From NCBI GenBank assembly GCA_001938485.1, contig MQRK01230279.1:144700-208699 (forward strand): a DNA stretch of 64,000 nt, in the 5' to 3' direction. Within the stretch, counting starts at the first letter, position 1. Each line of letters starts with the position of its first letter. Below the pieces are notes generated by a model, which saw only the letters and a program-made list of their open reading frames with translations, searched no databases and was not told the DNA's origin. Source of the stretch: Girardia tigrina. Its lineage: Eukaryota. This document shows, piece by piece, positions 1-51,765 of the stretch. Position numbers and translations under genes: made by a program.

Positions 1-3000
1 CGTGTTAATATATGTAAAATTTTAAATTGTAATAAATGTTATTTTTCTGTTGTATATTCATTTTTTGAACTTTATGTCATTTTGTTCTCAAATAGCTGCC
101 GCACCCTGTAATGTTTAAAGTATTCTTTTTCGAACGATTTCTTTACTCCCGTGTGGCACAAAATTTTGTGAAAGAAAGTAATGTACTCATTTCTTGAACT
201 TTTCGGGATCTAAATCTTATGCTCCAATGTCCTTGTGAAACCATCTCGTTCTTTAAAATTCATCTCTTGGTTCCCGTTTATTTTTGTCATTATTCCCCGC
301 ATCTCTTCATTATTTTGTTGCCAAGTGATAACGAATTTCTCCTCTTCGATTGCCAACATCCGTGTCTTTGATTTGATCGTTTTTGCTTGTTCGTGTGGTG
401 TCAAACATTGTGCGCATACCTACAATCAGTTCGTAATAACGCGTCTGCGTTTTTGTGTAATTCTCACTTTCGATATTGAAGCTTCATATCTAAACTACTT
501 AAATAATTCATCAAATTCTGAAATTGTGGCGTAATCGGTTTTTTTGTAGTCATCATAAATGTGATAGCTTTATGATTAGTTCGCAATTTAAATCGTGCTC
601 GTAAAGATAATGTTTAAAGTATTGCGTGAAATGAAAAATCACCAATAATTCATTCCTAGTTATGCAGTATCCAATTTCATGTTTTGTCATAGACTTTGAT
701 CCGTATGTAATTACTTGTTCCTCACCTTTTTCGTTTTCTTGTGCCAAAACTGCACCTATCGTATCGAACGATGCGTCCGTATCAAGTATAAACTCCTTGG
801 TATAGTGAGGGTAACATAGAACTGGTGCTTTTCTCTTTTTTAAAAGCCTCATCATGAGATTCGAACCAATACAGCTTATCTTTTGCATTTCCACACATCT
901 CTTCTAATGGCTTAGAAACTTCCGAGTAGTTCTTTATAAACTTCCAATAATAATTGCATATACCGAGAAAACTGCGCAATTCCTTCACACATTTTGGTTT
1001 TTCGTATTCTGCAATCGTTTCAATCTTTTCTGGGTCTGTCTTAATACCATTTTTGTTTACGATGTGTCCCAAAAATCGCAGTTCGTGTTGCAAAAAATTA
1101 CATTTTTCTGGATTTATTCATAGTCTTGCTCTCTGTATTCTTGAAAATACTTTCTCCAATCTTTCCATATGTTCCCTTTCCGTTTTTGAAAATATTAGAA
1201 TATCATCCAGATACACCAAAGCCTCTTTCCATAAAATTTCTTTCAGAACATCCGTCATCAGTTTCTGGAAGATTAATGCAGCTGCTGCAATACCGAACGG
1301 TAAAACAGAATTGTCCTATTTTGTGGAGAAAGCTGTTTTTAATCTTGAAGATTCCTCTAGTTCTACTTGATAGTATGCATTACCTAAATTAATGCTACTA
1401 AACAATTTCATTCATCTTAAAGAATCCAGCATCTCGTCAATGTTCGGTATGGGGAAAGCCTGTGACCTGGTTCAATAATCACAAATGCCCCATTTCCAGC
1501 CATAAACACATTTTAAAATTTTTCTATACATCTATACAGTTTTGTACCTTCTACCAGCTGGACTTTTTTTTGCATTCGAGAATCTCTCTGCCTATCCATA
1601 CTTACATTTATCTATATAAGGGTCTAATGGCATATTTTTGTACATTCGGAGTTCCCTATTTCCTCATTTTCCCACTGCATATTTATTCCTGGTCGTAATT
1701 CGAATCTTAAAGGTCTAGTTAATTTTATACCAAAGATAATAGGGGGAGACACTGTCTTAGCAATGTAAAATAAATTCTGTATCTTCTTATTTCTCTAAAT
1801 AACTGGTATATAACAAACGCCAAATATGTCCATCTCACTTCCATTTGCACAAATAACTGCTGATCTTTCATTCTTACTTACTGGAATGTGGAAACGGTGG
1901 ACAATCTCTGCATCCAATACGTTAATACGGGCCCCAGTATCTCATAAGCAATCTAATTCTGCATCCAATATTTTAGCTTTAAAACATAGTCTTCCACTAA
2001 ATATTCTATAATCGATTTTAGCCCTCGGATTTATAATAAATTCAACTATCACATTTACTTCTTCAATTTCATGCTCTACTATCTCTCTATTACCATTAAT
2101 ACTACATACATTACCCTTATTAAAACTATCATTACTATTAACTTTATTATATTTAAATTTATTAAAAATACTTTTATTTAAAATATTATCAATATAATTA
2201 ATATTACATATACAATTACTTATAACAGGATTCCAAACATTCTTACTTTATAATTTAAGGCTGCAATCATCTCTTGAATTCACGAGCCTTGGTGTTTATC
2301 GGTCGTTCAATATTTGAATCTTCCTCCATTCAAGCCCCCGACGATCTGTATCGGTTTTGGGACCAGTATCGTTGACTGAAACTCGATCCTTGAGATTCAC
2401 CTCGATAACATTGATATCCCAAGTGTCCATTCGCCTCACATACCGAACATTTTAGGTATGGACATTCTCTTCGAATGTGACCGCTACCTCTACGCCCGTA
2501 GCATTTTTTTATATTTTCGGGACTATCTTTTCGAATATGACCAGTTTTCCTGTAATTGTAACACACAATAAATTCACTATCATTTCTGCTGAATTGTTGT
2601 ATCGGTTTTTGTGTTGTTTCGTTTCTCATATTGCTTTGATTCACCCTCCTCTTTGACCGGAAATTGGATTGATTTGAGAATGATGAACGGTCCTTCAGAA
2701 CCGTTGCAAACGTCTTCTGTTTGTTGTTTGGTGCAATTTTTTATCTGTATTTCCATTTTTATGTTTTCCTTTTTTTCAATTACTGATTTGATCGTTTCCG
2801 GAACTTGCATATAAATTTGGGTTTTTATTGATACATCTTCTACTCAGTGAATTAAAAAATAAGACATTAACTCCTGTTTGTTCCATTTATGGTTTAAGAT
2901 TTTGTCGACCATTTTTTCGATTTTGTTGTAGAACGCAATTGCCGAATCCAGTCATATACGATAATTCATTAGATCGTTCAAATCTTGAATTAGTGACGTC

Positions 3001-3437
3001 GGTCTCTTGAAAGCTTTTCTCAATCTGTAGGCAAAACTGGTGATCTTCTCATCGATGGCTTCATATGTTGCCAGCAAATCCTTGTTGATGAATGCTTTCA
3101 CCATCATTGCTTGAATCGATTCATTAATTTGCGCGACTTGAAAATATCTTTCACAGTCTGCAATGAATTGATCCACGTCCTCGCGTCCATCGCATATTTT
3201 TGGTGCCAGATTGTTTATAATACTGGCCGTGGTCGTCATGTAAGGAGTTTCCACAATCAACGAGAACGAAATAATTCCAACAAGATTTATTTAATAATTC
3301 AAAATTTGCGCCTTTCGAATATTTAAACAAATCAGCTTTCAAGAGAATTTTTATTAGAATATTTGGCCTCCATTATTATACTATATATAAATAATAATAT
3401 TAGACATAAATATTAATATAGATTATTTATCCTTACA
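1..3437 (-). mobile_element. Decayed Ty3/Gypsy LTR retrotransposon (5' LTR, PBS, gag with zinc knuckles, protease, RT, RNase H; runs off left edge)
   Basis: ORF fragments: gag (2952-3260), CCHC-like knuckles (2330-2644), RT YLDDILIF (~1200), LRFLGHIV...LRSFLGICNYY, RNase H FILDTDAS...IGAVLAQ. Many stops and frameshifts. PBS TGGAGGCC at 3372-3365. Confidence 0.93.
3373..3437 (-). repeat. Putative very short 5' LTR (TGTAAGGA...) upstream of PBS
   Basis: Minus strand TGTAAGGATAAAT at 3437, AT-rich, then TGGAGGCC PBS. The start resembles the LTR starts at 34457 and 60679. The partner LTR is outside the window. Confidence 0.5.
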
Positions 3438-3699
3438 ATGTCGATGATGAATCTTATATTTATCAGTTCCTCAAATATGTGCATTTTATATAAAACATAA
3501 ATAAGTATTATTAATAACAAATAATTCTCATATATAATATATTTTTGCAAAACGGTAACTGAGAATGAAAATTGATTTTTTATATATTTCTGCAGTTTTC
3601 AATTTTGAAAGTTTTGAACAGTCAATAATGAATGCAACAATTGAGAATATCAGTTTCTTCGTTGCCATACTATCTAAGAATTCTTTCTATGCGATCGAA

Positions 3700-4620
3700 A
3701 TTCCTAGTCTGTTGCTGAATGCTTGTGGAAATGTGAAGAATTTGCGACGAATCCAGGACATTGCAAATGAGTACAAAGAAATGAACATGAAGGAGTAACA
3801 AGAAAGGAAAGCTCAGGTAGACCATCGACGGAAAGAACGGGCAAGAAAGTGGTTGCGGTGAAACAGCTGCTTGAAGATAAGAATTTGTCCATTAGAGTAA
3901 TCGCTACCCTAGCAGAAGTCACCATCAATGCAGCATACCAAATTGTGGAGAAGAAATTGAAAATGAAGTGCGTCTATGCCAGGTTGATTCCTCATCAATT
4001 AACAGAAAATCACAAGACACAGAAAGTTGTTGAGTCAGAAAAACACTGTGGTTTTTGACGAGATGTCAGTGTACAGTGATCATTTACCCTGTCGGCAAAA
4101 CAATGATTCTTGGGTGGCAGAAGACGGTAACCGGCCAACGATCACACGAAGAATAATATCAGACCAGAAGTCATACATAATTGTGGTGATAATTTTCGTG
4201 GTGATTTCAGTTTCAAGGTTTTCGAGAGAAATCAAACCATTACGCTCAACGTTATGTGGATTTCCTACAGATGATCCGGAAAACCGTTAGAACAGGACGC
4301 CTGCGCCTCGTGTATGATAATGCCTGTCCACATACGATTGTCATGACGCAAACTTTCTGGGAGCAAAATGGAGTTACTCTTGTCAAACAACCACCCTATT
4401 TGCCTGAGATAAATCTCTTAGATAGGTTCATGCTCCGAAATCTGGAATTTGACAAGCGCACAGTCCATTTTTCGAACAAGGATGCCCTGACGCTGTATCT
4501 CCAAAATTTCCTTGAGAATATGATGACCAAATTCAAGCTAGCCAGTGAGCTGTATCGTCTCAAACACCATTTACAAGAGGTAATTGACATTGATAATTCC
4601 GTGTTCGTTTAAAATTATTT
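3700..4620 (+). mobile_element. Degenerate mariner (DD34D-type) transposase remnant
   Basis: GRPST HTH linker, ARLIPHQLT (WVPHEL-like), DEMSVY, YDNACPHT, QPPYLPEINLLD across frames. TIRs not found. Confidence 0.8.
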
Positions 4621-5036
4621 TTCTTTCTTTCTATTGGAGAAACAAAGCTAATTCTATAAAGCTATTTAAAAATTTTATAAATTTAAAATTATTGGCTAAA
4701 TAATTAATTTTTAAACAGTTGTTTTTTTTAAATAAAACAAATATTAACAATTTTATAATTAACGCATAAATATTTATAATTAAAATTAAAATTTATGTAT
4801 GGATATTTATAATCAAATTTTGATATCTGGTTTTTGTGTAAAATAAGAAAATATTTTTCCTTGTAAATTTGTTTGGAAATAGTTAATAGTCATAGAAATA
4901 AATATTTGGAGTTATGAATTCTTGACCTCGAACCCAACAAGTGTAAGTAGTTTGTTCAATGAAATCTTACTATTTCTAAACGAAATCAAAAACTTTGTTT
5001 GGGTTCAATTTCAAAACTTTACTCTCTGTTAAATAG

Positions 5037-5071
<35 letters not shown>

Positions 5072-5132
5072 TTTGATCTCAGCGCACTTTATCGAGTCAT
5101 GATTTAATTTTGTAAGACATTCAAACTACATA

Positions 5133-6638
5133 TTAGGTTGAAGCAAAAGAAATGTCGTTTTTAATGTATTTAATATTCATTGTTTGAAATATTTTGAAAA
5201 TCATTAATAAATAGATTCATATTTAAATTTACTTTAACCCTTTCCTGGCTGAATAAAGAATTAAATTGGCATCCTTAAATCACTTTTACAACTTTGAAAT
5301 GATAAAAACAAAATGGCGTTTGACAAAACATGTGTAAGAATAATTTGTATATTCGTCTATTGATCAGAAATAAAAATATTATTTGTATTTTTCCATAGAT
5401 GCCTATAAAATATTAAAATGAAACATGATTCCATATGACATCAATAGTCAGGAAAAGGTTAAAGCTTAAACTTTACTCTATATTTTGATACCAAGAATGA
5501 CATTAGTGTTGTTCATTTAAGGTGTATTTATTTTATTTTAGAAATTTTAGAAAAGAAGGAAATGAGAAAAATTTTATTCTACGATTTCAAACTAGGTCGA
5601 AAAGCGATAGAAACGGCTCGGAATATTAACAATGTATTTGTATAGCATACCACTTATTTACGAACAGTACAATGTTGGTTTTCTAAGTTTCGTTGTGGCA
5701 ACGACAGTCTTGAAGATGAATAACACAGTAGTCGACCATCACAATTTGACGACGACCATTTGAAGAAGTTAATCAATGCTGACCCGCATAAAAATTCACG
5801 GCAAGTCACTTAAGAACTCCACGTTCACCAATCAACAGTTGTTCGCCATCTGAAGAAAATCGGGAAAGTGAAAAAGCTGGACAAGAGGATGCCGCACGAA
5901 TTAAACAAAAATCAAAAAAATCGTCGTTTTAACGTGTGTTCTTTTCTGCTTTTGCGTAATCAAAGCGACCCGTTTCTGCATCGAATTGTAACGTGCGATG
6001 AAAAATGGGTCCTAAACGATAACCGGCGACGTTCAGCTCAGTGGTTGGATTTCAATGAGGCTCCAAAACCTTTCCCGAAGCCAAAATTACACCAAAAATG
6101 TTTTAGTAACTGTTTGGTGGTCTGCACACGGTTTAATCCATTACAGCTTCCTAAAACAAGTCGAAACAATTACAGCGGAAAAGTATTGTCAGTAAATTGA
6201 CAAAATGCTCCAAGAACTACAAAAAAACGGCCGGCATTACTCAATAGAAAGGGGCCAATTCTTCTACATGACAACACTCGTCCACATGTTGCAAGAAAGA
6301 CCATGCTGAAGTTAAACGAACTGGGATATGAAACTTTGCCTCATCCACCGTACTTACCAGACCTTTCTCCTACAGACTATCACCTTTTCAAACATTTCAG
6401 CCAGTTCCTTTGCGAAAAATGCTTCAGAAACCAAGGAGATGCTGAAAGAGCCTCGGACGACTTCATCACCTCCAGAACTCCAGAATTTTATGAAACTGGA
6501 ATAAATAAACTTGTTACCCGTTGGTAACAGTGTGTTTAATGTAATGTTTTTTATTTTGACTAATAAAGTTAATTCTAAAGAAAGCTATGTTCATTTAAGT
6601 TGACGGTTAAAAACAACATTTCTTTTGCATCAACCTAA
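5133..6638 (+). mobile_element. Full-length decayed mariner element with TIRs and TA TSD
   Basis: TIR TTAGGTTGAAGCAAAAGAAATGTCGTTTT / AAAACAACATTTCTTTTGCATCAACCTAA, TA both sides. MPHEL, IVTCDEKW, HDNTRPH, HPPYLPDLSPTDY. Confidence 0.95.
5238..5458. mobile_element. piggyBac-type MITE nested in the mariner 5' UTR
   Basis: TTAA|CCCTTTCCTGGCT ... AGTCAGGAAAAGG|TTAA: TTAA TSD and 13-bp imperfect TIR starting CC. Confidence 0.75.
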
Positions 6639-11865: not shown

Positions 11866-12889
11866 ATAATAATCAAGCTCTATTTTAAGCAAATTATGAG
11901 ATAAATTTAGTATGAAACTTGAATATTAATTTTTTTCGTTTCTTATCGAATGATTTTAAAACATTTTAATCCTCTATTTTAAAAATGTGATTATACATAC
12001 GGTGAATTTATAACTAATTTTTCAATCTTATATATTTGGTGATATTTTAGTAATAAATACCCAATACCTCTTGGTTTATGTTCTGATCTCATTTGTAAAT
12101 ATACTTGTAATCGATAACACCACATGTGTTTGACTTATTTTATATCATATCTGTATAAGTTTTCGCGTTGTGATCGCTTTTGACCCTTACTTGAGCCTAA
12201 TTTAAATTAAAATATTAAATAAATAAAATTAAGTACAATTAAATTAAATAAGTAAAAGAAATTAAAAAATTAAATACAATATTAAATTAAAAGTAAATAA
12301 AACAATTAAATTAAAATATTAATTAAATAAAATCATTAAATTAAAATAAAGAAATTAACAAGTAAAAATAAATAAATAAATCAAATAAAAAAATATATAT
12401 TTATATAAAAATTGTGATTAAACCATTACTTTCATTTGGTTTCGTGATGGTATTTTGTAGATTGTGGATTTATTTTCTAAATCAATCAATATTATTTGTA
12501 TTATCAATTTTCAAATTATTGTCAATGAATAGTAATCACCATGTTTGAATTAACCAATTAAGGTAATTAGGTATGTGTGTGTGTGTAATTACATGGTTGC
12601 GTATGAGTGTGTTTAAAAAAAATAAATGTGTTATTAACAATTACAAAAAATAAAACAATGAACAATTTTGAAAATTTGTTTAAATGTATCAATTTAATCA
12701 AGGTTGTGTAGGTGAATATTGTCACAAATTTCAAAAACTAAATAAAATTTGACGAGTTTTCTTTTAATTTGATTGCGTGTTATTTTGACAATGATAATCA
12801 AATGGAATTATAAATCAAATTTAAAAAGAATCAATTTAATGCAAATAAATTTGTGGGGAATTGAAATTTGGTGAATATATACTATTGAA

Positions 12890-13327
12890 ATGCCGAATGA
12901 TAAATTTACTTATCATGCCAATAAGCATATCAATTTCAAATTAAATCGTGAAAATGGAGATTTGGATAACAATGTTAACAATAAAACTTCTTTTACGAAC
13001 CAGTTTTATGGAAAAAATGAAAATATTTTCGGATATAAAAATTTGCGAATAAATTTATGGTTTTCTACGTATCGATTGAATCTATATTTCAATATATCGT
13101 TTGACAAGAAACTGGAAAATGATTATATAAAAGCTGATGATTTTGAAAAGTCTCTTCTCGCTAACATTCCCTATGTGTATCGTAATATTGATCTATACAG
13201 AGAAGCATTGGAAAACGAGAATTTCAAATATTTCGGAAACTTAATTGATGCTTATAAATTTGATGATAAATCGTTTGAAATTTATTACGTTTGTGGAACT
13301 GAAATGGAACGTATACATTGTCAATTA
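12890..13327 (+). CDS. HAT1: Histone acetyltransferase type B catalytic subunit (HAT1), first coding exon (Hat1 N-terminal domain); downstream exons not found
   Basis: INFKL, FTNQFYGKNENIFGYKNLRINLWF, KADDFE, ENFKYFGNLIDAY, FEIY...ERIHCQL align with HAT1 (YTHQLFGDDETAFGYKGLKI, EADDVE, DFKPFGTLLHTY, EYHERLQ). Similarity stops at a phase-0 GTTTGT donor at 13328. Confidence 0.85.
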
Positions 13328-15118
13328 GTTTGTGTGATATTGAGAACTATTCTTAATTTGATTCTTGAGCACAAACTAAATACTTCCATAACTTGCTAAA
13401 GATAATCTAAAATCAATATTGACATCTTCTCTAAATCAATTTTTTTCTCACGATTCTGTTGCTTATTTAATTTTAAAACCAATTTATGACAGAAAACAAG
13501 TGTTGTTTCATTTATTTAATCCTGATCATTTGTTGCACCTGTGGATGAATCAATAACTCACGGATCAGAAAAATTCAGAAAAAGAATTGTCAATAATAAA
13601 AACCAAAAAACCCTCCGCTGAGATGCAAAATTAAGGATCAAAGAGCACAGATCATTAGACAATTTGAGAAATATTGCTTAAATTAATTTAAATTTTAAAA
13701 CAAACAGAAGAAATAATTTTCCGTTTTCTTGCAATGAATTTTTAAATTATTAGGTTAGAGTGATGTTTAATCTCTTAACAATAAGATAAATTGATTTAAA
13801 AATGAAAACTCACATTGAACTTCTCTGCTAATGTTTATTTTGATAAGAACGAAATTTCACATAAGTACACAATTAGTGCTACAAACGTATAATCTCAATG
13901 GAATCACTGAATATGTAAAAATGTCATTATAGTAAGCCTCCCATTTCTTTCAATGGTATTGAGCCTAAGGCTCTTTAGAGGGTTCACCCAAACTAAAGTC
14001 CTTAAGGGTCCCCGATACACCTCCTACTGGGTCAGTGGCCTTCCGCCTCTGAGCAGTCGGTTTGCCAGTTATAAACGACCAGCCATGGAACTTGGTATCA
14101 TGGCCATACATACCTTTGGCTGTTACGGTAGATGCGTAACAGCCACGAAATGGGCACTTGAATCCTTTCCTATGCTGCCAGTGAAACCTGGGTACGCTGT
14201 CGAATGCCTTTTCAAGGTCGATAAAGATAACAAAAACATTTATATTCCGGTATCTGGCCTCTTCTTGTATCTTTCGTGTGATACCTATTGCTTGCGCTGT
14301 GCTTCCTTTTGGTCTGAAAACCAAAATTGCCAGTCGTCCAGTTTCCTTTCAAGATGTGGCATTAATCTATTTGCAATGATTCGGCTATGATCTTTCCTCC
14401 TACATCAAATAGGAATATTCTTCTATAATTATTTAGTTCCGTCTTGGACCCCTTCCTTTGTATAGGATCACGACCTTCGCCGTTTTCCAAGCCTCCGGGA
14501 ATTCTGCTCTTCCCTCCAATATGTCCACGAAACATTGAAGGATCTTTTCAGTTAACTGGAGACCGCCCCACTTATATAGCTCTGATACCGTTGTTTCCAG
14601 CAGCTGTACCGTTCTTTAGTTGCCCAATAGCGGTACTTACTTCTTCTATGTCCGGTGAGTAATCGATGTCTAGTGTTTGGCTCTGTTCGATATCTGCGAT
14701 ATAATCTCTTTCGCTCTTCTTGAATAGATGTGAGAAGTGCTCTGCATCACTTCGTCCTTCACACTGCTCTGCACAGTACATAGAGAGGATTCCTTTGTTT
14801 CACTATTGCAGATGACTCTGAGTTCCGTGTATAACTCTGAAGTCTTGCCCGTACATTCTCTATGAGAATACCTTCTATCTCATGTCCGATTGTTTCAATC
14901 CTCTCTCTTTTCCACTTCCTCAGATGCCGCAAGGTGTTCAATCTTGAAGCCTTCCATATTGAATATGTCCTTTCACATCTATTCTGAATGTATTCCTTCC
15001 TCTGTTTCCATTTCTCCTGCAGTTGTGGTTTCAGTTCTTCTAGGTGCCCGTGTATCCACCTTTGATTGAGCGGGATTTTCTTCTTTCGGTATCTTTTTGT
15101 GGTCTTTAAGATGACCTC

Positions 15119-15995
15119 TGTAGCGTATTATTTGCCTTCCTTACACTAGTCGAAAATATCAATTTTCTAAACGTCTAAATTATCATTTCATCATAATTAT
15201 TTATTATTTCACCATTAGTATTTTTATTTTATTTCTAATCCATTTCTTAAGAAATAATTTTTTTATTATTTTCAATATTTTCATTATTTGTCATTTTTAT
15301 TTTTATTTTATTTTATTTATCTAATTATTTATAACAATTATTATTTATAACAACCTAATTATTTATGACAATTATTCCATGGATAATTAAAAGTATCCTT
15401 GGAATAATATTAAAATTCAAATCAAAATTAAAAAATCAATTAATGAAATAATATTCATTATTATATTTTGACGACGGCCTTTAAGCGCTCGACAACCGAC
15501 GAAAATATATAAAACTTCTGGTTATCCGACAAGGAAAACAAATAACCGATACAACAAAAAATAAACCGTTATTTCTCATCAAACCAAAACATTGAAACCA
15601 AATAGACGAAGATCTTATCCAAAACAAGATTAAATATTATCTGGATTTAGTAGAAACTACTATCTAAAATCAGACGAAGATCTTATCCGAAACAAGATTA
15701 AATATCATCTGAATTTAGTCGAAACTACTATCTAAAATCAGACGAAATTTTTATCCGTGACTAGACGGAATTAAAGTAACCTTATTTATTATTATTGATA
15801 TCTATCTACTGACCTATTTCCCACTACTGTGATCCCAGATACTTCTTATTGTCTCCTTGATCTTTCCGTTGAAGTTTGTTATCTTCTAATATAATATTAT
15901 AATAAATCTAATTGTTATCATTATAAATTTAAACCAAGAGATTGTTATTAGGTTCGATTGAAGAGCACTTTGTTTTCCAATCGAGTTTCATAACA
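15119..15995. mobile_element. Solo LTR (877 bp) inserted in the RTE ORF
   Basis: ACCTC|TGTAGC ... ATAACA|ACCTC: TG..CA ends and 5-bp TSD. Removing it restores the RTE frame WDDLEEVILKTT. Confidence 0.88.
15604..15757. repeat. 68-bp tandem repeat (about 2.3 units) inside the solo LTR
   Basis: AGACGAAGATCTTATCC... recurs at 15604 and 15672, with a partial unit at 15740. Confidence 0.9.
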
Positions 15996-16990
15996 ACCTC
16001 TTCCAAGTCGTCCCAAATCTCGACATTCGGACAAGCCTGCCCTACGTCACTACTGATGACCACTTTGTTGTTCTGCAAGGAGAACCTGTCAATTTTCCCT
16101 TTACATTTCTTCTTTCTATCGTTTGCCAACTTGAGTATCTTATGTTGTTGGCGATCCATATCGTTAACACGACTAAATCGTGGTCTGAGCCACAGTCAAA
16201 GTTTGGATAACATTTGACGTTACTTAATCTGTTGCATCTGCTCCTTTGCGACAGGAATAAATCCAATAATAACCTTTTCTTCGTTTCTGGGTGTCTCTAG
16301 CTAGTTCGTTGCGCCAACTTGTGTTTGTAGAAGGTGTTCTCTACTCGTAAGTTGCACGCGTCGGTCAGATCTATAAATAAACCTCCGTTTTCTGATGTTA
16401 CTGTTGAACTAGTGTAACACTCAACTGTTTTACCATTTTCCCCCGTACGATTAAGTCGACAGTTGAAGTCGCCTCCAACTATCAATTCGAATTTTCTCTT
16501 CTCAGCTTCAGTCGTCGCCCTTTCGACATGTTCCTGCAATGATGCAAAGAACTCCTCCTTTTCCTCACTTGAATATCCGCTGTCAGTCGGAACGTATACC
16601 TCTACCAATGTGATCGACCTTTGGGGTATATTCATAGAATATTTTGATGTTACCATCATGTCTACGCCTCTTTCTCTTGTGCCACTCGTACTGCCACTAT
16701 GATGGATCCTCCACTCCCGAAAGAGCTAATATCGGCTCCAATCAAGTGTGTCTCTGTGAGTATGCACATATCGATTTTATGTTTTTCAAAGACATTGGTG
16801 ATGTTAAGTATCTTTTCGTCGGTCAAGCCTCTAACATTCCATATTCCAATCCTCAGTCCACTGCAAGTGGAATTCTTAACGAGGGATCCCCCTTTCGGGA
16901 TCTTAATGACTTCGGGTCCTGCCAGACCCCTAGTTTGAGTTTTGAAAGCTGTGTACTAGCGAAAGACAGAGTTGCTAGCCCCGTCGATCC

Positions 16991-17105
16991 GTCCACTCAT
17001 TTAGTCTCGATCAAGGGGACCCCCTCTTCTATTTCTAGAAAGGGGAAGAGACCCTCTTTCTAGTTCCAAGGATACACCACGGGGAGGCGAGCGACTTTAT
17101 ATCCA
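16991..17105 (-). ncRNA. HDV-like self-cleaving ribozyme at the 5' end of the RTE element
   Basis: Minus strand: P1 GGATAT/GTATCC; P2 GTCGCTC/GAGTGGAC; P3 GCC/GGT; L3 TCCCCGT; P1.1 CC/GG; P4 region with CTAGAAAG/CTTTCTAG hairpin; J4/2 CTAAAT. It starts about 10 nt inside the element's TSD. Confidence 0.75.
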
Positions 17106-17124
17106 GACTTTATATCATTATAGT

Positions 17125-18278
17125 GCACCTCAACTCCTGTCGAGTATTAAGCCTGAGGCTTTATAGGAGGCCTGGGACGCTGATGGTTCTCAACAAGCAC
17201 TAACCCAATGTTGGGGTCGAGCATGCTTTAGTTCCGNNNNNNNNNNNNNNNNNNNNNNNNNNNNNNNNNNNNNNNNNNNNNNNNNNNNNNNNNNNNNNNN
17301 NNNNNNNNNNNNNNNNNNNNNNNNNNNNNNNNNNNNNNNNNNNNNNNNNNNNNNNNNNNNNNNNNNNNNNNNNNNNNNNNNNNNNNNNNNNNNNNNNNNN
17401 NNNNNNNNNNNNNNNNNNNNNNNNNNNNNNNNNNNNNNNNNNNNNNNNNNNNNNNNNNNNNNNNNNNNNNNNNNNNNNNNNNNNNNNNNNNNNNNNNNNN
17501 NNNNNNNNNNNNNNNNNNNNNNNNNNNNNNNNNNNNNNNNNNNNNNNNNNNNNNNNNNNNNNNNNNNNNNNNNNNNNNNNNNNNNNNNNNNNNNNNNNNN
17601 NNNNNNNNNNNNNNNNNNNNNNNNNNNNNNNNNNNNNNNNNNNNNNNNNNNNNNNNNNNNNNNNNNNNNNNNNNNNNNNNNNNNNNNNNNNNNNNNNNNN
17701 NNNNNNNNNNNNNNNNNNNNNNNNNNNNNNNNNNNNNNNNNNNNNNNNNNNNNNNNNNNNNNNNNNNNNNNNNNNNNNNNNNNNNNNNNNNNNNNNNNNN
17801 NNNNNNNNNNNNNNNNNNNNNNNNNNNNNNNNNNNNNNNNNNNNNNNNNNNNNNNNNNNNNNNNNNNNNNNNNNNNNNNNNNNNNNNNNNNNNNNNNNNN
17901 NNNNNNNNNNNNNNNNNNNNNNNNNNNNNNNNNNNNNNNNNNNNNNNNNNNNNNNNNNNNNNNNNNNNNNNNNNNNNNNNNNNNNNNNNNNNNNNNNNNN
18001 NNNNNNNNNNNNNNNNNNNNNNNNNNNNNNNNNNNNNNNNNNNNNNNNNNNNNNNNNNNNNNNNNNNNNNNNNNNNNNNNNNNNNNNNNNNNNNNNNNNN
18101 NNNNNNNNNNNNNNNNNNNNNNNNNNNNNNNNNNNNNNNNNNNNNNNNNNNNNNNNNNNCATCTTCTGGGAGCTGAAGCGGGATGCTTACTGTGGATTCC
18201 CTGTGGTCCCGCTTGAGATGTCTATTTAGCTCCTTTTGTTCGGCAAACTCCTTAAAGCAATCTTTTATCGTACATTGA
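17125..18278 (-). mobile_element. Second, 5'-truncated RTE copy in tandem (zinc-finger region and 3' end; middle is an N-gap)
   Basis: 18160-18275 encodes CTIKDCFKEFAEQKELNRHLKRDH (homologous to CHLENCNKGFAEQKGLNRHIREDH at ~51140). 3' stem-loop AAGCC-TCA-GGCTT at 17162-17148. Third TCATTATAGT at 18279-18288. Continuity across the gap is inferred. Confidence 0.75.
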
Positions 18279-20399
18279 TCATTATAGTACCAGCTTTTAC
18301 ACTTCTTTGGAAAGTTTTTAGAAATTAGAAATATGATTGCAGCGTGCGGTGTTTCAGACTACAGAGACAGTCTCTTGAAGACAGCCCCCATCGATAATTA
18401 CGATTATGGTTGATCGGTAAACAAGACCTCTCGTTCTTATTAATGTTATGCACAAAAAAATCCATTTCCGATAATTTATGTGAATTTCTCAAAATGTGCT
18501 TAAAATCATCGAAAGCTTAATGAATTGAAGAGTTGATCCCGATTCTATTTAAATTTTTCTTTTAATTTCGATTTCCATGTTTTAAATAAAAAAAAACAAA
18601 GCCGAGACGAACTGGAACAAGCTTTATTATCAAAAAATTCAAAAGAAGGAAAAAACGTTCTTCTTTTTTTTTTATTGAAACAAATTATTTTTTAGTGTAA
18701 ATAATTTTTAATTTATTTTAATATATTAAATTGGCGTGTATAAATACTTATTTAAAAATTATTAAATGTTTTTATTATTTTTAATTTTATAAAAGGGAAC
18801 CCTACAAGGATAAAAGGCTTTATTACTCGTGTTTAGTTTCAAATTTTGTTAAAAACTGTTGTAAGTATTGAAAACAGAACTCATTGTTCAATCAGAAAAT
18901 GAACAAAGAAGAGAAAAACAATATACTTTTGAAAGATAATTCAGAAGGATGTTTTTCTTCACTGATCTAGAAAAAGATTTAAAAACAATACATGGTTATA
19001 ATACGACCAAATATTGCTTAAAAGTGTCTTATTTTGAATTGTTTAAAAATGCTAAGTCTAAAAAGGATATTAAGATATTAAAACTCAAAATATGTTTAGT
19101 AATAGATATTTTACACATTTAGTATTCCTTTAGTACACCTTTAACATTCCCTTCTGATAAAGTTTATATATATATATATAAATATAATGGATGCGAAAAT
19201 ACATGTACTGGTGACACTACCAGTAATCTCTGGAAAGGAATTCAAGATCATGGTTGAAAGAGGCTTAAATATATTACTGAATATAAGAAAAATGTATATT
19301 GATATTAGATTATACGTAAGAATTTTAAAGATTACAGGAAGATAATGCTGTGGAGAGCATTGTTAATTACTATAATTTATCCTAAAATAAATGTTCAAAC
19401 TACAGTCTAAACCAGCTTACTGGGAATTGTTTTGTTATTATCGTTCATGAAACCGATAAGACAATCGTTAATTTGTATATATAGTCAAAAATCGTTTATC
19501 AACCAAAAATACAGTAAAATTTTACTCCAAATATAAACAGATTTTACAACAATAAAATTAAAATTGAGATTTTTAAAATTTTTATGATTCTTATTCCGAT
19601 TTGTATTTTTGAACATTTTATTATGGTTTTATGTAAGTCTTTATGATGACCTCAATATTAATATTCAGAAACAACATATCTGAAGAAAAAATAGTGTAAT
19701 ACTTTTGAATTCTCTTCTTTCGAAGTCGATGGACAATAAGATAATGATAAAAGTAAAAATTTAGTAAAATTAAAATAGTGTGAAAAAATATTTTTGTTGA
19801 GAGTAAGAATAAAAAATATAAAAAGAAATTATTTATTGTCAGGTAAAATAAAAATTGTTTACCTTTTTACGAAAATAAATATAAAGTATACATAAATATT
19901 CAAAGTAAAATTTAACCAATGTATAAATAATTTAAATAGAACAAGAAGAAATTTATATTGAAAGAATAAACAAATATTTAAAATAATAAATAGAGTTAAA
20001 AATAGATATAAAGAAAGTTATATAAATGAAGAGAAACAGAAGAAAAGACATAAAAAAATATTTTAAAAAGAAGGGGGTTCAAAAAATTTATATTTAAAGT
20101 TTGACTTTATTTATTGACCTTAAAAGTCGAAGGTTATTTTATTGATCAAGAATCTAATGAATTTGATCAACATAATTAATTAGATCTCCTGTATAGATTA
20201 ATTAATTTAGATCGAGATTTATAAAAGATTGATCGTAGAAAGTCACTCACACATTGAATTAAACCGAATCTTAATCTGGGTCATTAAATTTGACGGAAAT
20301 AAGTGTTCAATTGATTAAATATATTGTGGAGTTTTTAGTGTGTTTGTAAAATTAGACAGAGAAAACAATTATTTTCTTTAAAATATATTTTAATATTTA

Positions 20400-50688: not shown

Positions 50689-51765
50689 GCTCTGATAAAG
50701 AAATTAGAAGCATTACCCAATATGTGCACGAGAACAGTACTAGACATCGACAAAAGAGAGAAAATCAGGATGGAGACAATTAGTATTGGACTTAGTCACC
50801 CAATGGACATCGTTGCCAGAAGACGGCTCCTGTTCCATGTTCCTCTGGCATCCGAGAAGGTCAGGAATGCGTACAAAGAATACTCTCAGGTACAATAGAG
50901 AGCGACTCAAAGATTGGAGGACGGAAAAAGCAAAAACTATCGGAATGCCTGCGAGTCGATGTGAAATGGCTGTTCGGAGAAACCGCCAGTCTCGACAGTG
51001 TTATTACTCTGCTATAGATTAATGCTCAACTCCGAATGCGATACAGACTCGATTATTTAATTCGCAATGCGAACACAATAGGAAAGAATACCACAGACTT
51101 GCCAAAACTAATCAATCCAAGGATGAATACAGTTCGTTGCCATCTCGAGAACTGTAACAAAGGATTTGCAGAGCAAAAAGGACTGAATCGTCATATTCGT
51201 GAGGATCACCAGAAAATTATACCGGACGCTGAAAAGAAAGCATATCAGTGTCAATATTGCTCAAAAAGCTACTACACTCAGGGGTGGTTAATAATGCATT
51301 ATCGGAATGATCATTCATCAGCAAACATTCCAGAAGAAACAGTTACCAATACTCAAAAGAAACGTCGCAAACCGCAGAAAGAAAGCAACATCAGAGAAAA
51401 TGAAGACTTACCAACAAGTAACAGCACATTTCAGGTACCAACCGTCGGTGCGAGCAAATCAACTGTTCCCCAAGAAGCGATCTCCTCAGAAGTACTGAGT
51501 TTCCGTCTAACAGACCAAACAGCAAAAGAAAACTCCAGATATCCCTTCGCTGGCTGCTCCAAGTTCACGGGATCGGCCAAAGCAATGTTAACCCATGGAA
51601 CATCCTACCTTCGTTGTTCGTTTCTCACTGTGGGACCAAAGAGAACTCGTAAGCGGAAGGCTCACGACCCCATAGGAGGCCTATCGGGGGCTGCTAGATT
51701 CTTTTGTTGAGTGGACCCTCTAAAGAGCCTACGGCTCAATACCATTAGAAAGAGATAGGAGGCCC
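50689..51765 (+). mobile_element. 5'-truncated RTE copy with C-terminal C2H2 zinc fingers and 9-bp TSD
   Basis: CHLENCNKGF...HIREDH, CQYCSKSY...HYRNDH, decayed YPFAGC...H. 3' end homologous to 13934-14000. TSD ACATGACAA at 50680-50688 and 51766-51774. No poly(A). Confidence 0.9.

Follow-up and report, generated by a model that had tools for sequence, protein, structure and literature searches.

Related retroelements probably stacked at a shared target site in Girardia tigrina and the split target signature of their LINE group

The window, a stretch of 64,000 nucleotides of Girardia tigrina DNA (contig MQRK01230279.1), contains several related retroelements that very probably inserted separately and are stacked at a single target site. 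Two elements are stacked at this site, likely three: a LINE copy A, a non-coding element B and, beyond an assembly gap, a truncated LINE of subfamily C. The features are listed along the element strand.

18289 to 18303, minus strand: upstream half of the target signature (GTG at −14 to −12, A-run at −10 to −7, T at −1); 15.0 bits, the best of 125,416 window positions
18279 to 18288, minus strand: target site duplication (TSD) copy 1, ACTATAATGA on the element strand, original target; exact repeat
18160 to 18278, minus strand: 5′-truncated subfamily-C LINE piece, encoding the first C2H2 finger; matches to C copies and to a finger
17237 to 18159, no strand: assembly gap of 923 N, predicted to contain the rest of C, a fourth TSD and the rest of B
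17125 to 17236, minus strand: 3′ tail of element B; 100% identical to 15 other full-length hits
17115 to 17124, minus strand: TSD copy 2, separating the tail of B from the head of A; exact repeat, junction also in run X1
17105 to 17114, minus strand: 10 extra nucleotides repeating the start of the head of A; head comparison
16993 to 17104, minus strand: HDV-ribozyme-like head of A with P1, P2, P3 and J4/2; P1.1 broken in the window copy
15996 to 16900, minus strand: APE endonuclease region of A, frameshifted
15119 to 15995, no strand: 877-nt AT-rich insert in A, solo-LTR-like, with TG...CA ends and a 5-bp duplication
14187 to 15118, minus strand: linker and RT start of A
13934 to 14186, minus strand: what internal deletions have left of the 3′ part of A, with the third C2H2 finger, the end of the ORF and the tail; no poly(A), no repeats
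13924 to 13933, minus strand: TSD copy 3, 3′ of A; exact repeat

The 10-mer TCATTATAGT is present in three exact copies at 13924, 17115 and 18279, as reported in the initial annotation. Shuffled windows have a mean of 0.24 copies, and none of 100 reaches three. One copy adjoins the 3′ end of A, a second separates the 5′ end of A from the tail that comes next, and the third borders the right-hand piece at its 5′ end. The minus strand carries all elements, in agreement with the common orientation described earlier. The repeats do mark element ends, but they do not bound the elements precisely, as had been claimed: the head of A begins at 17104, and the 10 extra nucleotides that follow are absent from the 39 other best head hits. 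The right-hand copy had been taken for a single RTE element. Instead, a B-tail flank lies left of the gap and a truncated subfamily-C LINE right of it.

A is a broken copy. It has the 877-nt insert, has lost most of the RT and retains just the third of its three zinc fingers. A form without the insert is present in run X1. B represents a non-coding family of about 420 nt with an HDV-ribozyme-like head in other copies. Judged by its tail sequence, B is a young element. The age order of A before B fits the identities, 92–94% of A to its nearest copies versus 100% for the B tail. At the loci examined, gap-free B tails are preceded by B bodies and heads, and another group member follows 5 of 29 young B copies. 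Nine head variants of A and B fit an HDV-like fold (P1, P2, P3, L3, P1.1 and J4/2 with the catalytic C). The head types differ by compensatory pairing changes, and none of 300 shuffles matches the fold. The heads of A and B have the structural elements of an HDV-like ribozyme, and self-cleavage is predicted. Rfam RF00094 scored 32.9 bits on the A-type head of the L176 copy, under the gathering score of 50; in the window region, Rfam yielded chance hits only, without an RF00094 hit on the head of A.

The target logo suggested by the initial annotation revealed a shared split motif, RGTG-N11-T|AC, with about 11 bits. It is based on 36 sites, after dropping 21 loci with element DNA upstream. A at +1 is present in all 36 sites, T at −1 in 35, G at −14 in 33, T at −13 in 29 and G at −12 in 29. 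A GTG at −15 to −13 occurs in 30 of 36 sites versus 996 of 39,635 background AC sites (2.5%). The TSDs are 9–17 nt long. Their upstream copies start with AC (29), AT (4) or AA (3), and no fixed motif was present at the 3′ end of the TSD among the 36 sites. Element tails end in ...AC; those of A, B and C end sharply in ...CAC. The earlier view that RTEs are not sequence-specific is outdated: a split Tn-TA signature is described in two publications (PMC6007223, PMC13295347). The GTG motif was not found in the mainly open-access literature searched.

Window sites were scored with a matrix from 35 other loci. The upstream duplicate retains the whole motif, whereas the inner duplicates lose it and score −7.1 and 2.8 bits. 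Arrays should therefore grow at the 5′ side. The target preference is loose: in leave-out scoring, three of the 35 sites used for training reach about 3 bits or less. TSD length as a test of polarity gave a weak result that is confounded by the search design. Of 13 cases, 6 have a shorter TSD, 3 one of equal length and 4 a longer one; on visual inspection, three of these last four are artefacts. Among metagenome relatives, the seven loci examined of 80 have no clear TSD. In 22 of 28 relatives, the helix of the first C-terminal finger has E at position 3 and R at position 6. This conservation suggests that zinc fingers may guide the choice of target.

One base of a Penelope-like GIY-YIG gene carries 737 of 3,515 counted tails (21%). 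The motif alone predicts 3–12%, assuming 1,436–6,000 Penelope copies. The GIY-YIG domain of the host scored 22.5 bits versus a cut-off of 22.6, and a 96% relative (P0121) has RVT_1 in the same protein. By its predicted domains, the host has the make-up of a Penelope-like element, with an RT plus a GIY-YIG endonuclease at the C terminus. A 28S rDNA site reaches 19.5 bits, above every left-out training site, and its TSD ends in CAGGGAT, the first seven nucleotides of the B head. Neither the Penelope hot spot nor an RTE at this 28S site was found in the mainly open-access literature searched. The Penelope excess and the 28S match would suit a lineage specialised for the Penelope GIY-YIG codon, the 28S site or both, with other insertions as spill-over. 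We regard this specialisation as possible, though doubtful. In a contig-order sample, 27 of 41 tails are neither at the Penelope site nor in tandem; the observed share exceeds the expected one no more than 2- to 7-fold, a factor that varies with the assumed Penelope copy number and the 35-site matrix; and rDNA is collapsed in the assembly.

The piece at 18160–18278 is 97% identical to most C copies and identical to locus L092 over 113 nt. The encoded finger matches P0025. Most C copies carry other letters than the piece at 3 of its 119 positions, so the youth of C rests on one sister copy. A C-type tail is present inside the locus in 23 of its 29 best relatives, and a B tail in none; 11 of the 16 gap-free ones have the C-type tail 542–544 nt on. 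Among 29 other B-tail loci, no C piece was located upstream of the B tail. The gap probably hides a third junction. Its predicted content comprises the remaining 543 nt of C, a fourth TSD and about 309 nt that would complete B. The sum of about 862 nt is some 60 nt short of the 923 nt. A second locus, L084, has a gap with a similar excess (630 expected versus 694), and 12 of 13 gaps inside B copies are within 20 nt of expectation. The initial annotation would have abandoned its reading if the gap flanks were not one element. They indeed appear to differ, with a B tail left and a C LINE right, but unlike flanks imply three insertions, and the re-insertion reading is strengthened.

With two inserts only, the right-hand piece would be one 5′-truncated young LINE, the autonomous partner of B, that combines a C-like finger region with a tail of the B type. 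The C variant of the window is indeed present in just two places, the window and one sister copy, both running into gaps, and L084 shares the layout and the excess of about 60 nt. We consider this unlikely: ORF sequence is joined gap-free to a B tail at no locus examined, and the LINE parts belong to different subfamilies, C in the window and A in L084. Gap-spanning sequence was obtained neither from the sister C copy, which is itself gapped, nor from short contigs of runs X1 and X2, nor from run X3, which stems from another organism and has 5 aligned reads.

Tandem pairs, which the initial annotation had wished to see counted, recur across the genome with the target duplicate within the junction. 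A search for tail-TSD-head arrangements gave 73 matches (reversed control 0), and a further search 17 (control 2). True heads are present in 20 of 30 checked tail-TSD-head matches and in 35 of 48 of all junctions checked, some being duplicates of one site. Eight matches have spacers of 0–5 nt; four of these have true heads and one is abutting (L393). Junctions with a 6–15-nt spacer far outnumber abutting ones. At locus L176, a 28S fragment contains four elements stacked at one site; they belong to three kinds, and ACCACAGGGAT precedes each of them. L084, where the layout of the window is repeated, has one more unit set off by a TSD. In the public run X1, one contig joins 17113 to 18278, an A-only joint with 21 letters on the short side, under the 31-letter bridging rule. 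Another matches the B-A junction. No flank-C or flank-B contig is listed for X1, and run X2 provided no joint either way.

Of the two explanations given earlier, a second element re-cutting the same target agrees with the shared motif. It is preferred over template jumping because tandems recur with the target in the junction and X1 holds both the A-only joint and the B-A junction. In template jumping, the RT would start from one nick and, having reached the 5′ end of a first RNA, switch to the 3′ end of a second. End-to-end template jumping is a property of the R2 RT, and the abutting junction L393 may have such an origin. The B-A junction lends no support, as it holds 10 nt of genomic target; a jump could account only for the gap-hidden C-B junction, then without a TSD. 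Overall, we judge it improbable. Mis-scaffolded collapsed repeats, or a Penelope hot spot consisting of one old insertion copied with its host, are very improbable: the assembly is fragmented (255,254 contigs) and some tandem loci duplicate one another, but the B-A junction also occurs in an independent contig set, and BLAST identifies group members in 10 of the first 30 Penelope-site loci, where types A, B and C are all represented and the 5′ ends differ.

The L176 copy has 3,858 nt and one frame with one internal stop; Pfam domains are APE, RVT_1 and zf-C2H2. A 94% relative (P0001) is a single 1,169-aa protein. One long ORF with APE before RT and without ORF1 is an RTE feature, as are the short TSD and the split signature with T|A at the cut, here with GTG upstream instead of Tn. 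A 3′ tail of short tandem repeats is typical for the RTE clade (PMC3747384); the tails of A, B and C have neither repeats nor poly(A). C-terminal C2H2 fingers and an HDV-like 5′ ribozyme are shared with ingi/L1Tc. The RNase H and poly(A) tail of that group are lacking, with no RNase H family at E ≤ 0.05 in the domain search of the L176 copy. In a midpoint-rooted RT tree of the query and 119 of 120 hits, A falls within a clade of 33 members, most of them with several fingers, that has a support of 1.0; the tree had no clade-labelled reference or outgroup, and Atlas names give no clade. A PDB search matched only L1, R2 and group II RTs. By its sequence features, APE-RT-3xC2H2 and a tail free of poly(A) and repeats, the group may be called RTE-like, its assignment to the clade being tentative. 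R2-type site-specific elements have their fingers at the N terminus, a restriction-like endonuclease at the C terminus and a single exclusive target; such an element was ruled out by the N-terminal APE, the C-terminal fingers and the dispersal of most sites.

We infer the following course of events. A likely inserted first. B and the truncated C likely landed later at the upstream duplicate of A, each presumably recopying the same 10 bases, and the gap would contain the fourth TSD. Back-to-back stacking is likely because each landing leaves the target sequence intact for the next. The APE protein may bind GTG about one turn upstream and nick at T|AC. The terminal AC of the RNA would pair with the nicked strand and prime target-primed reverse transcription. 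B may borrow the protein of A or C via a similar 3′ hairpin. HDV-like heads would cut units out of read-through transcripts, leaving stacked copies separately mobile. High-copy sequences that fit the motif well, such as the Penelope-like GIY-YIG gene and 28S rDNA, would become hot spots.

Same-site stacking and weak RTE signatures are already known. Tx1L inserts into the transposon Tx1D. The Tx1 group comprises target-specific LINEs (PMC3747384), and R2 has 28S-derived ribozyme stems (PMC3774820). Like our group, these elements return to a particular base of a multicopy sequence, either a transposon or 28S rDNA. Specificity is loose here, as about four in five of the counted tails lie elsewhere than at the Penelope site, and an APE endonuclease takes the place of the C-terminal endonuclease of R2. 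For RTE LINEs and SINEs (Bov-B, Sauria SINE, plant RTE/Au), a Tn-TA insertion signature has been described (PMC6007223, PMC13295347). Shared are the single-ORF APE-RT LINE with short partners, the split signature, in which T|A marks the cut and a motif lies about one turn upstream, and the match of the first TSD base to the element 3′ end. Unlike in those systems as described there, the upstream motif is RGTG at −15 to −12, not a T stretch at about −10, and the signature has about 11 bits. The group also differs by its three C-terminal C2H2 fingers, its HDV-like heads, its single-base hot spots and a tail that is not a microsatellite. Tandem dimers by double insertion are documented for R1, jockey, DMRT1B and the P element (PMC5932611). 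They also have head-to-tail units, keep the target duplicate in the junction and are driven by site preference. In contrast, the stacks here mix subfamilies and a non-coding partner, comprise up to four units, and their motif predicts the side of growth. L1Tc/NARTc of Trypanosoma cruzi (ingi clade) combines APE-RT, C-terminal C2H2 fingers and an HDV-like 5′ ribozyme, and its fingers bound nucleic acids without sequence specificity (PMC5814959). A short non-autonomous partner and shared-TSD tandems are further likenesses to our group.

A more far-reaching scenario is tentative and rather unlikely in full: a deep RTE-like LINE branch that recognises its target through the first of its C-terminal zinc fingers and descends from a 28S-specific ancestor (peptidyl-transferase region, 28S-derived ribozyme stems kept). 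It would now be a hyperparasite of relaxed specificity, having broken the nuclease at the first catalytic motif in a third to a half of the copies of one Penelope family.

The finding describes an APE-type LINE group with a split motif stronger than and distinct from the published RTE signature. The target rule predicts landing sites and the growing side of arrays. How APE LINEs without ORF1 choose their target, by endonuclease, RT or C-terminal fingers, is a standing question that becomes testable. It bears on RTE-based gene-insertion tools, currently listed as random integrators (PMC13708176). The Penelope site is an example, on the scale of a genome, of a retrotransposon that disables a different one at a single base.

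The stacked feature is real, but was partly misdescribed in the initial annotation as two same-orientation RTE copies bounded by a triplicated 10-bp target site. In the genome assembly (1.43 Gb, 255,254 contigs; G+C of the window ~29%), the window contains exactly three exact copies of TCATTATAGT, at the element ends annotated initially. The triple repeat is borne out by shuffled windows, with a mean count of 0.24 and never three copies. All elements of the stack are carried by the minus strand, where the repeat reads ACTATAATGA. The common orientation stands; the right-hand piece, rather than being a single RTE, is the tail of one element and a piece of another. The elements A, B and C belong to one group (APE-RT-C2H2):

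18279-18288, minus strand: first copy of the target site duplicate (TSD)
18160-18278, minus strand: piece of C, a 5'-truncated LINE of another subfamily
17237-18159: assembly gap of 923 N
17125-17236, minus strand: tail of B, a short non-coding element
17115-17124, minus strand: second TSD copy
17104-13934, minus strand: A, a broken LINE copy; the match to the family head (5' end) begins at 17104
15119-15995, within A: 877-nt AT-rich insert bounded by TG...CA, with a 5-bp duplication and 68-bp repeats inside
13924-13933, minus strand: third TSD copy

A comprises a frameshifted APE region, the 877-nt insert, the RT start, internal deletions, the third zinc finger and the tail, and shares 92-94% identity with the copies nearest to it. 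The 10 nt at 17105-17114 duplicate the start of its own head and were present in 0/39 other best head matches. The insert appears solo-LTR-like; the public sequencing run X1 contains a version of A without it. A full-length relative at locus L176 has 3,858 nt and one ORF, with one stop, for APE, RT and three C2H2 fingers. The tails terminate in ...GGGAGGCCCAC and have neither poly(A) nor repeats. The group thus lacks the typical repeat tail of RTE; judged by architecture, it likely belongs to RTE and was filed as RTE-like.

An intron-free ORF at 12875-13399 on the plus strand matches the HAT1 N-terminal domain (Pfam E 7e-26). It lies in a stretch of very high summed contig depth in X1 and a second run, X2, and so may be part of a host gene that a repeat has carried along.

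For the sequence at 17125-17236, 15 other full-length matches with complete identity were found. Its resolved copies form the ~420-nt non-coding family B, which starts with CAGGGATC. The sequence at 18160-18278 codes for the first finger of subfamily C, distinct from A. A C-type tail is present in 23 of its 29 best relatives and a B tail in none; in 11 of 16 gap-free relatives the C-type tail follows 542-544 nt on. At 29 other B loci, the C piece was never present upstream. The simplest filling of the gap would be the rest of C (543 nt), a fourth TSD (10 nt) and the rest of B (~309 nt). The predicted ~862 nt is ~60 nt short of the 923 N. A comparable excess (630 vs 694) occurs at L084, which has the layout of the window. 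Gaps within 13 B copies had sizing errors of <=2 nt in seven, <=20 nt in five more and 113 nt in one. The stack probably holds three inserts, not two. Its closest parallel is L231, at the same place as L084, where a Penelope-like GIY-YIG gene (the Penelope site) holds a truncated LINE piece of A type, a gap and two B copies, one young and one of an older variant, with TSDs.

The target signature was derived from loci with both TSD copies findable; 21 loci with element DNA upstream were dropped, as were Penelope sites, 28S sites and the window itself. The 36 unique sites left, drawn mostly from the best matches to the window's copies and not a random sample, have G-14 in 33, T-13 in 29, G-12 in 29 and T-1 in 35, with an A-rich run at -9..-6. 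GTG begins at -15..-13 in 30/36 sites vs 996/39,635 background AC sites. TSD length is 9-17 nt; the upstream copy begins with AC (29), AT (4) or AA (3). The GTG and T-1 motif is common to A, B and C insertion sites. A matrix from 35 of the 36 sites (one Penelope-like site omitted; 10.9 bits) places the window's upstream TSD at the top of 125,416 positions, with 15.0 bits. The inner TSDs score -7.1 behind B's tail and 2.8 behind A's tail; after insertion, therefore, only the upstream duplicate remains a good target.

Other members were also seen. A further 5'-truncated one lies at 50689-51765 on the plus strand (80% to the L232 subfamily, 9-bp TSD, GTA at -14). L187, L204, L211, L213, L214, L221 and L226 hold more families with distinct GGGAT-starting heads, using the same sites; the diversity of the group goes beyond A, B and C. 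A distant relative from a metagenome, which has one finger and starts with GGGGATC (L279, 250-300 and 3900-3976), lies inside a (TG)n microsatellite, a single case that echoes the GTG preference.

Among 3,515 exact A/C tails in the genome, 737 run into ACATYRGAGA, which holds the codons for Y-I-G in a GIY-YIG domain (Pfam 22.5 bits, cut-off 22.6). A 96% relative of this gene has an RT too, so the host of the hot spot is a Penelope-like element. The exact upstream sequence plus the 10 nt is present at 1,436 Penelope sites, 743 of them uninterrupted. The first 30 comprised 14 uninterrupted sites, 10 with A, B or C (BLAST) with differing 5' ends, 2 at a contig edge and 4 unclear; the insertions are independent of each other. 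Scored with the matrix, the Penelope site reaches 15.4 bits; the 28S site is higher, at 19.5 bits. The motif alone predicts 3-12% of tails at Penelope sites (1,436-6,000 copies) vs 21% observed; the general motif therefore explains most of this clustering, but perhaps not its full extent. Of 41 tails sampled in contig order, the Penelope site accounted for 9-11 and family sequence followed 3, while 27 belonged to neither class. At L176 (1-5000), four units of three element kinds are stacked at a single 28S rRNA site: B, A, B and a fourth element with an HDV head lie inside a 28S fragment, each behind ACCACAGGGAT. More 28S-site junctions were seen at L184, L206, L218 and L232.

Tandem pairs are present genome-wide. 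A head-like word 5-14 nt past the tail was found 73 times for A/C (reversed control 0) and 17 times for B (reversed control 2). True heads were confirmed in 35 of 48 inspected junctions, including 20 of the 30 inspected loci of the 73-match A/C set; several junctions are duplicates of one site. Of the 13 junctions without a true head by motif, 3 look real by eye; the rest are chance or 28S sequence. Spacers of 0-5 nt gave 8 matches with 4 true heads, one abutting with only AC between. Another member follows 5 of 29 young B copies. At L065, L079 and L249, the 3' flank of the insertion is family-A interior, nested or in tandem with truncated copies.

A 160-nt X1 contig runs from the upstream flank through one TSD into A's head (17113 to 18278); the short side of this joint has 21 letters, including the 10 private nt, and is below the 31-letter rule for bridging. 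A second X1 contig, of 58 nt, matches the B-TSD-A junction exactly. Most simply, the later inserts are present in some alleles and absent from others. The X1 contigs listed include none that joins the flank to C or to B, and X2 has no joint either way. A test of order by TSD length, which is biased, leaned the same way, with later inserts upstream. The stack very likely arose by re-insertion at a preferred site. The initial proposal that a second element re-cut the same target gains support from the shared motif, the recurrent TSD-separated tandems and the A-only joint in X1. Double insertion with the target retained in the junction is described as a tandem route (PMC5932611).

The sites share a motif that survives only upstream, tail and target overlap by AC, and TSD-separated stacks recur. 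By TPRT, the protein would bind at GTG, the nick would fall at T|AC, the terminal AC of the RNA would aid priming and a second nick would follow ~10-13 nt further on. Newer copies would join 5' of older ones. The zinc fingers may read the target. In 22/28 clade members, finger 1 has E at helix position 3 and R at position 6, residues that by the zinc-finger code would recognise G followed by C or T. Three points count against this role: fingers are 11-100 residues apart, not in a canonical array; finger 2 is unlike between A and C, yet their targets agree; and L1Tc fingers are described as binding without sequence specificity (PMC5814959).

RTEs are called unspecific in older and review texts (PMC1291365; PMC13708176), although a split signature has been published for them, consisting of Tn about 10 nt upstream of the cut and T|A at the cut itself (PMC6007223; PMC13295347). 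The available text of PMC5035012 and PMC3846280 does not mention the present sites. The GTG motif, the Penelope hot spot and an RTE at this 28S site were not found in the literature searched.

Nine variants of the head, from A, B and related families, fit HDV-like P1, P2, P3, L3 and J4/2 with compensatory changes; 0/300 shuffles passed this test. The Rfam RF00094 match has 32.9 bits, under the gathering score. HDV-like heads are reported from R2 and L1Tc (PMC6765202). A small hairpin is common to the tails of A, B and C and fits B using the LINE protein, as it may do. B begins with the same 7 nt that end the 28S TSD, and R2 ribozymes are described as often cleaving within upstream 28S sequence (PMC3774820). 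An ancestor of the group may therefore have targeted 28S.
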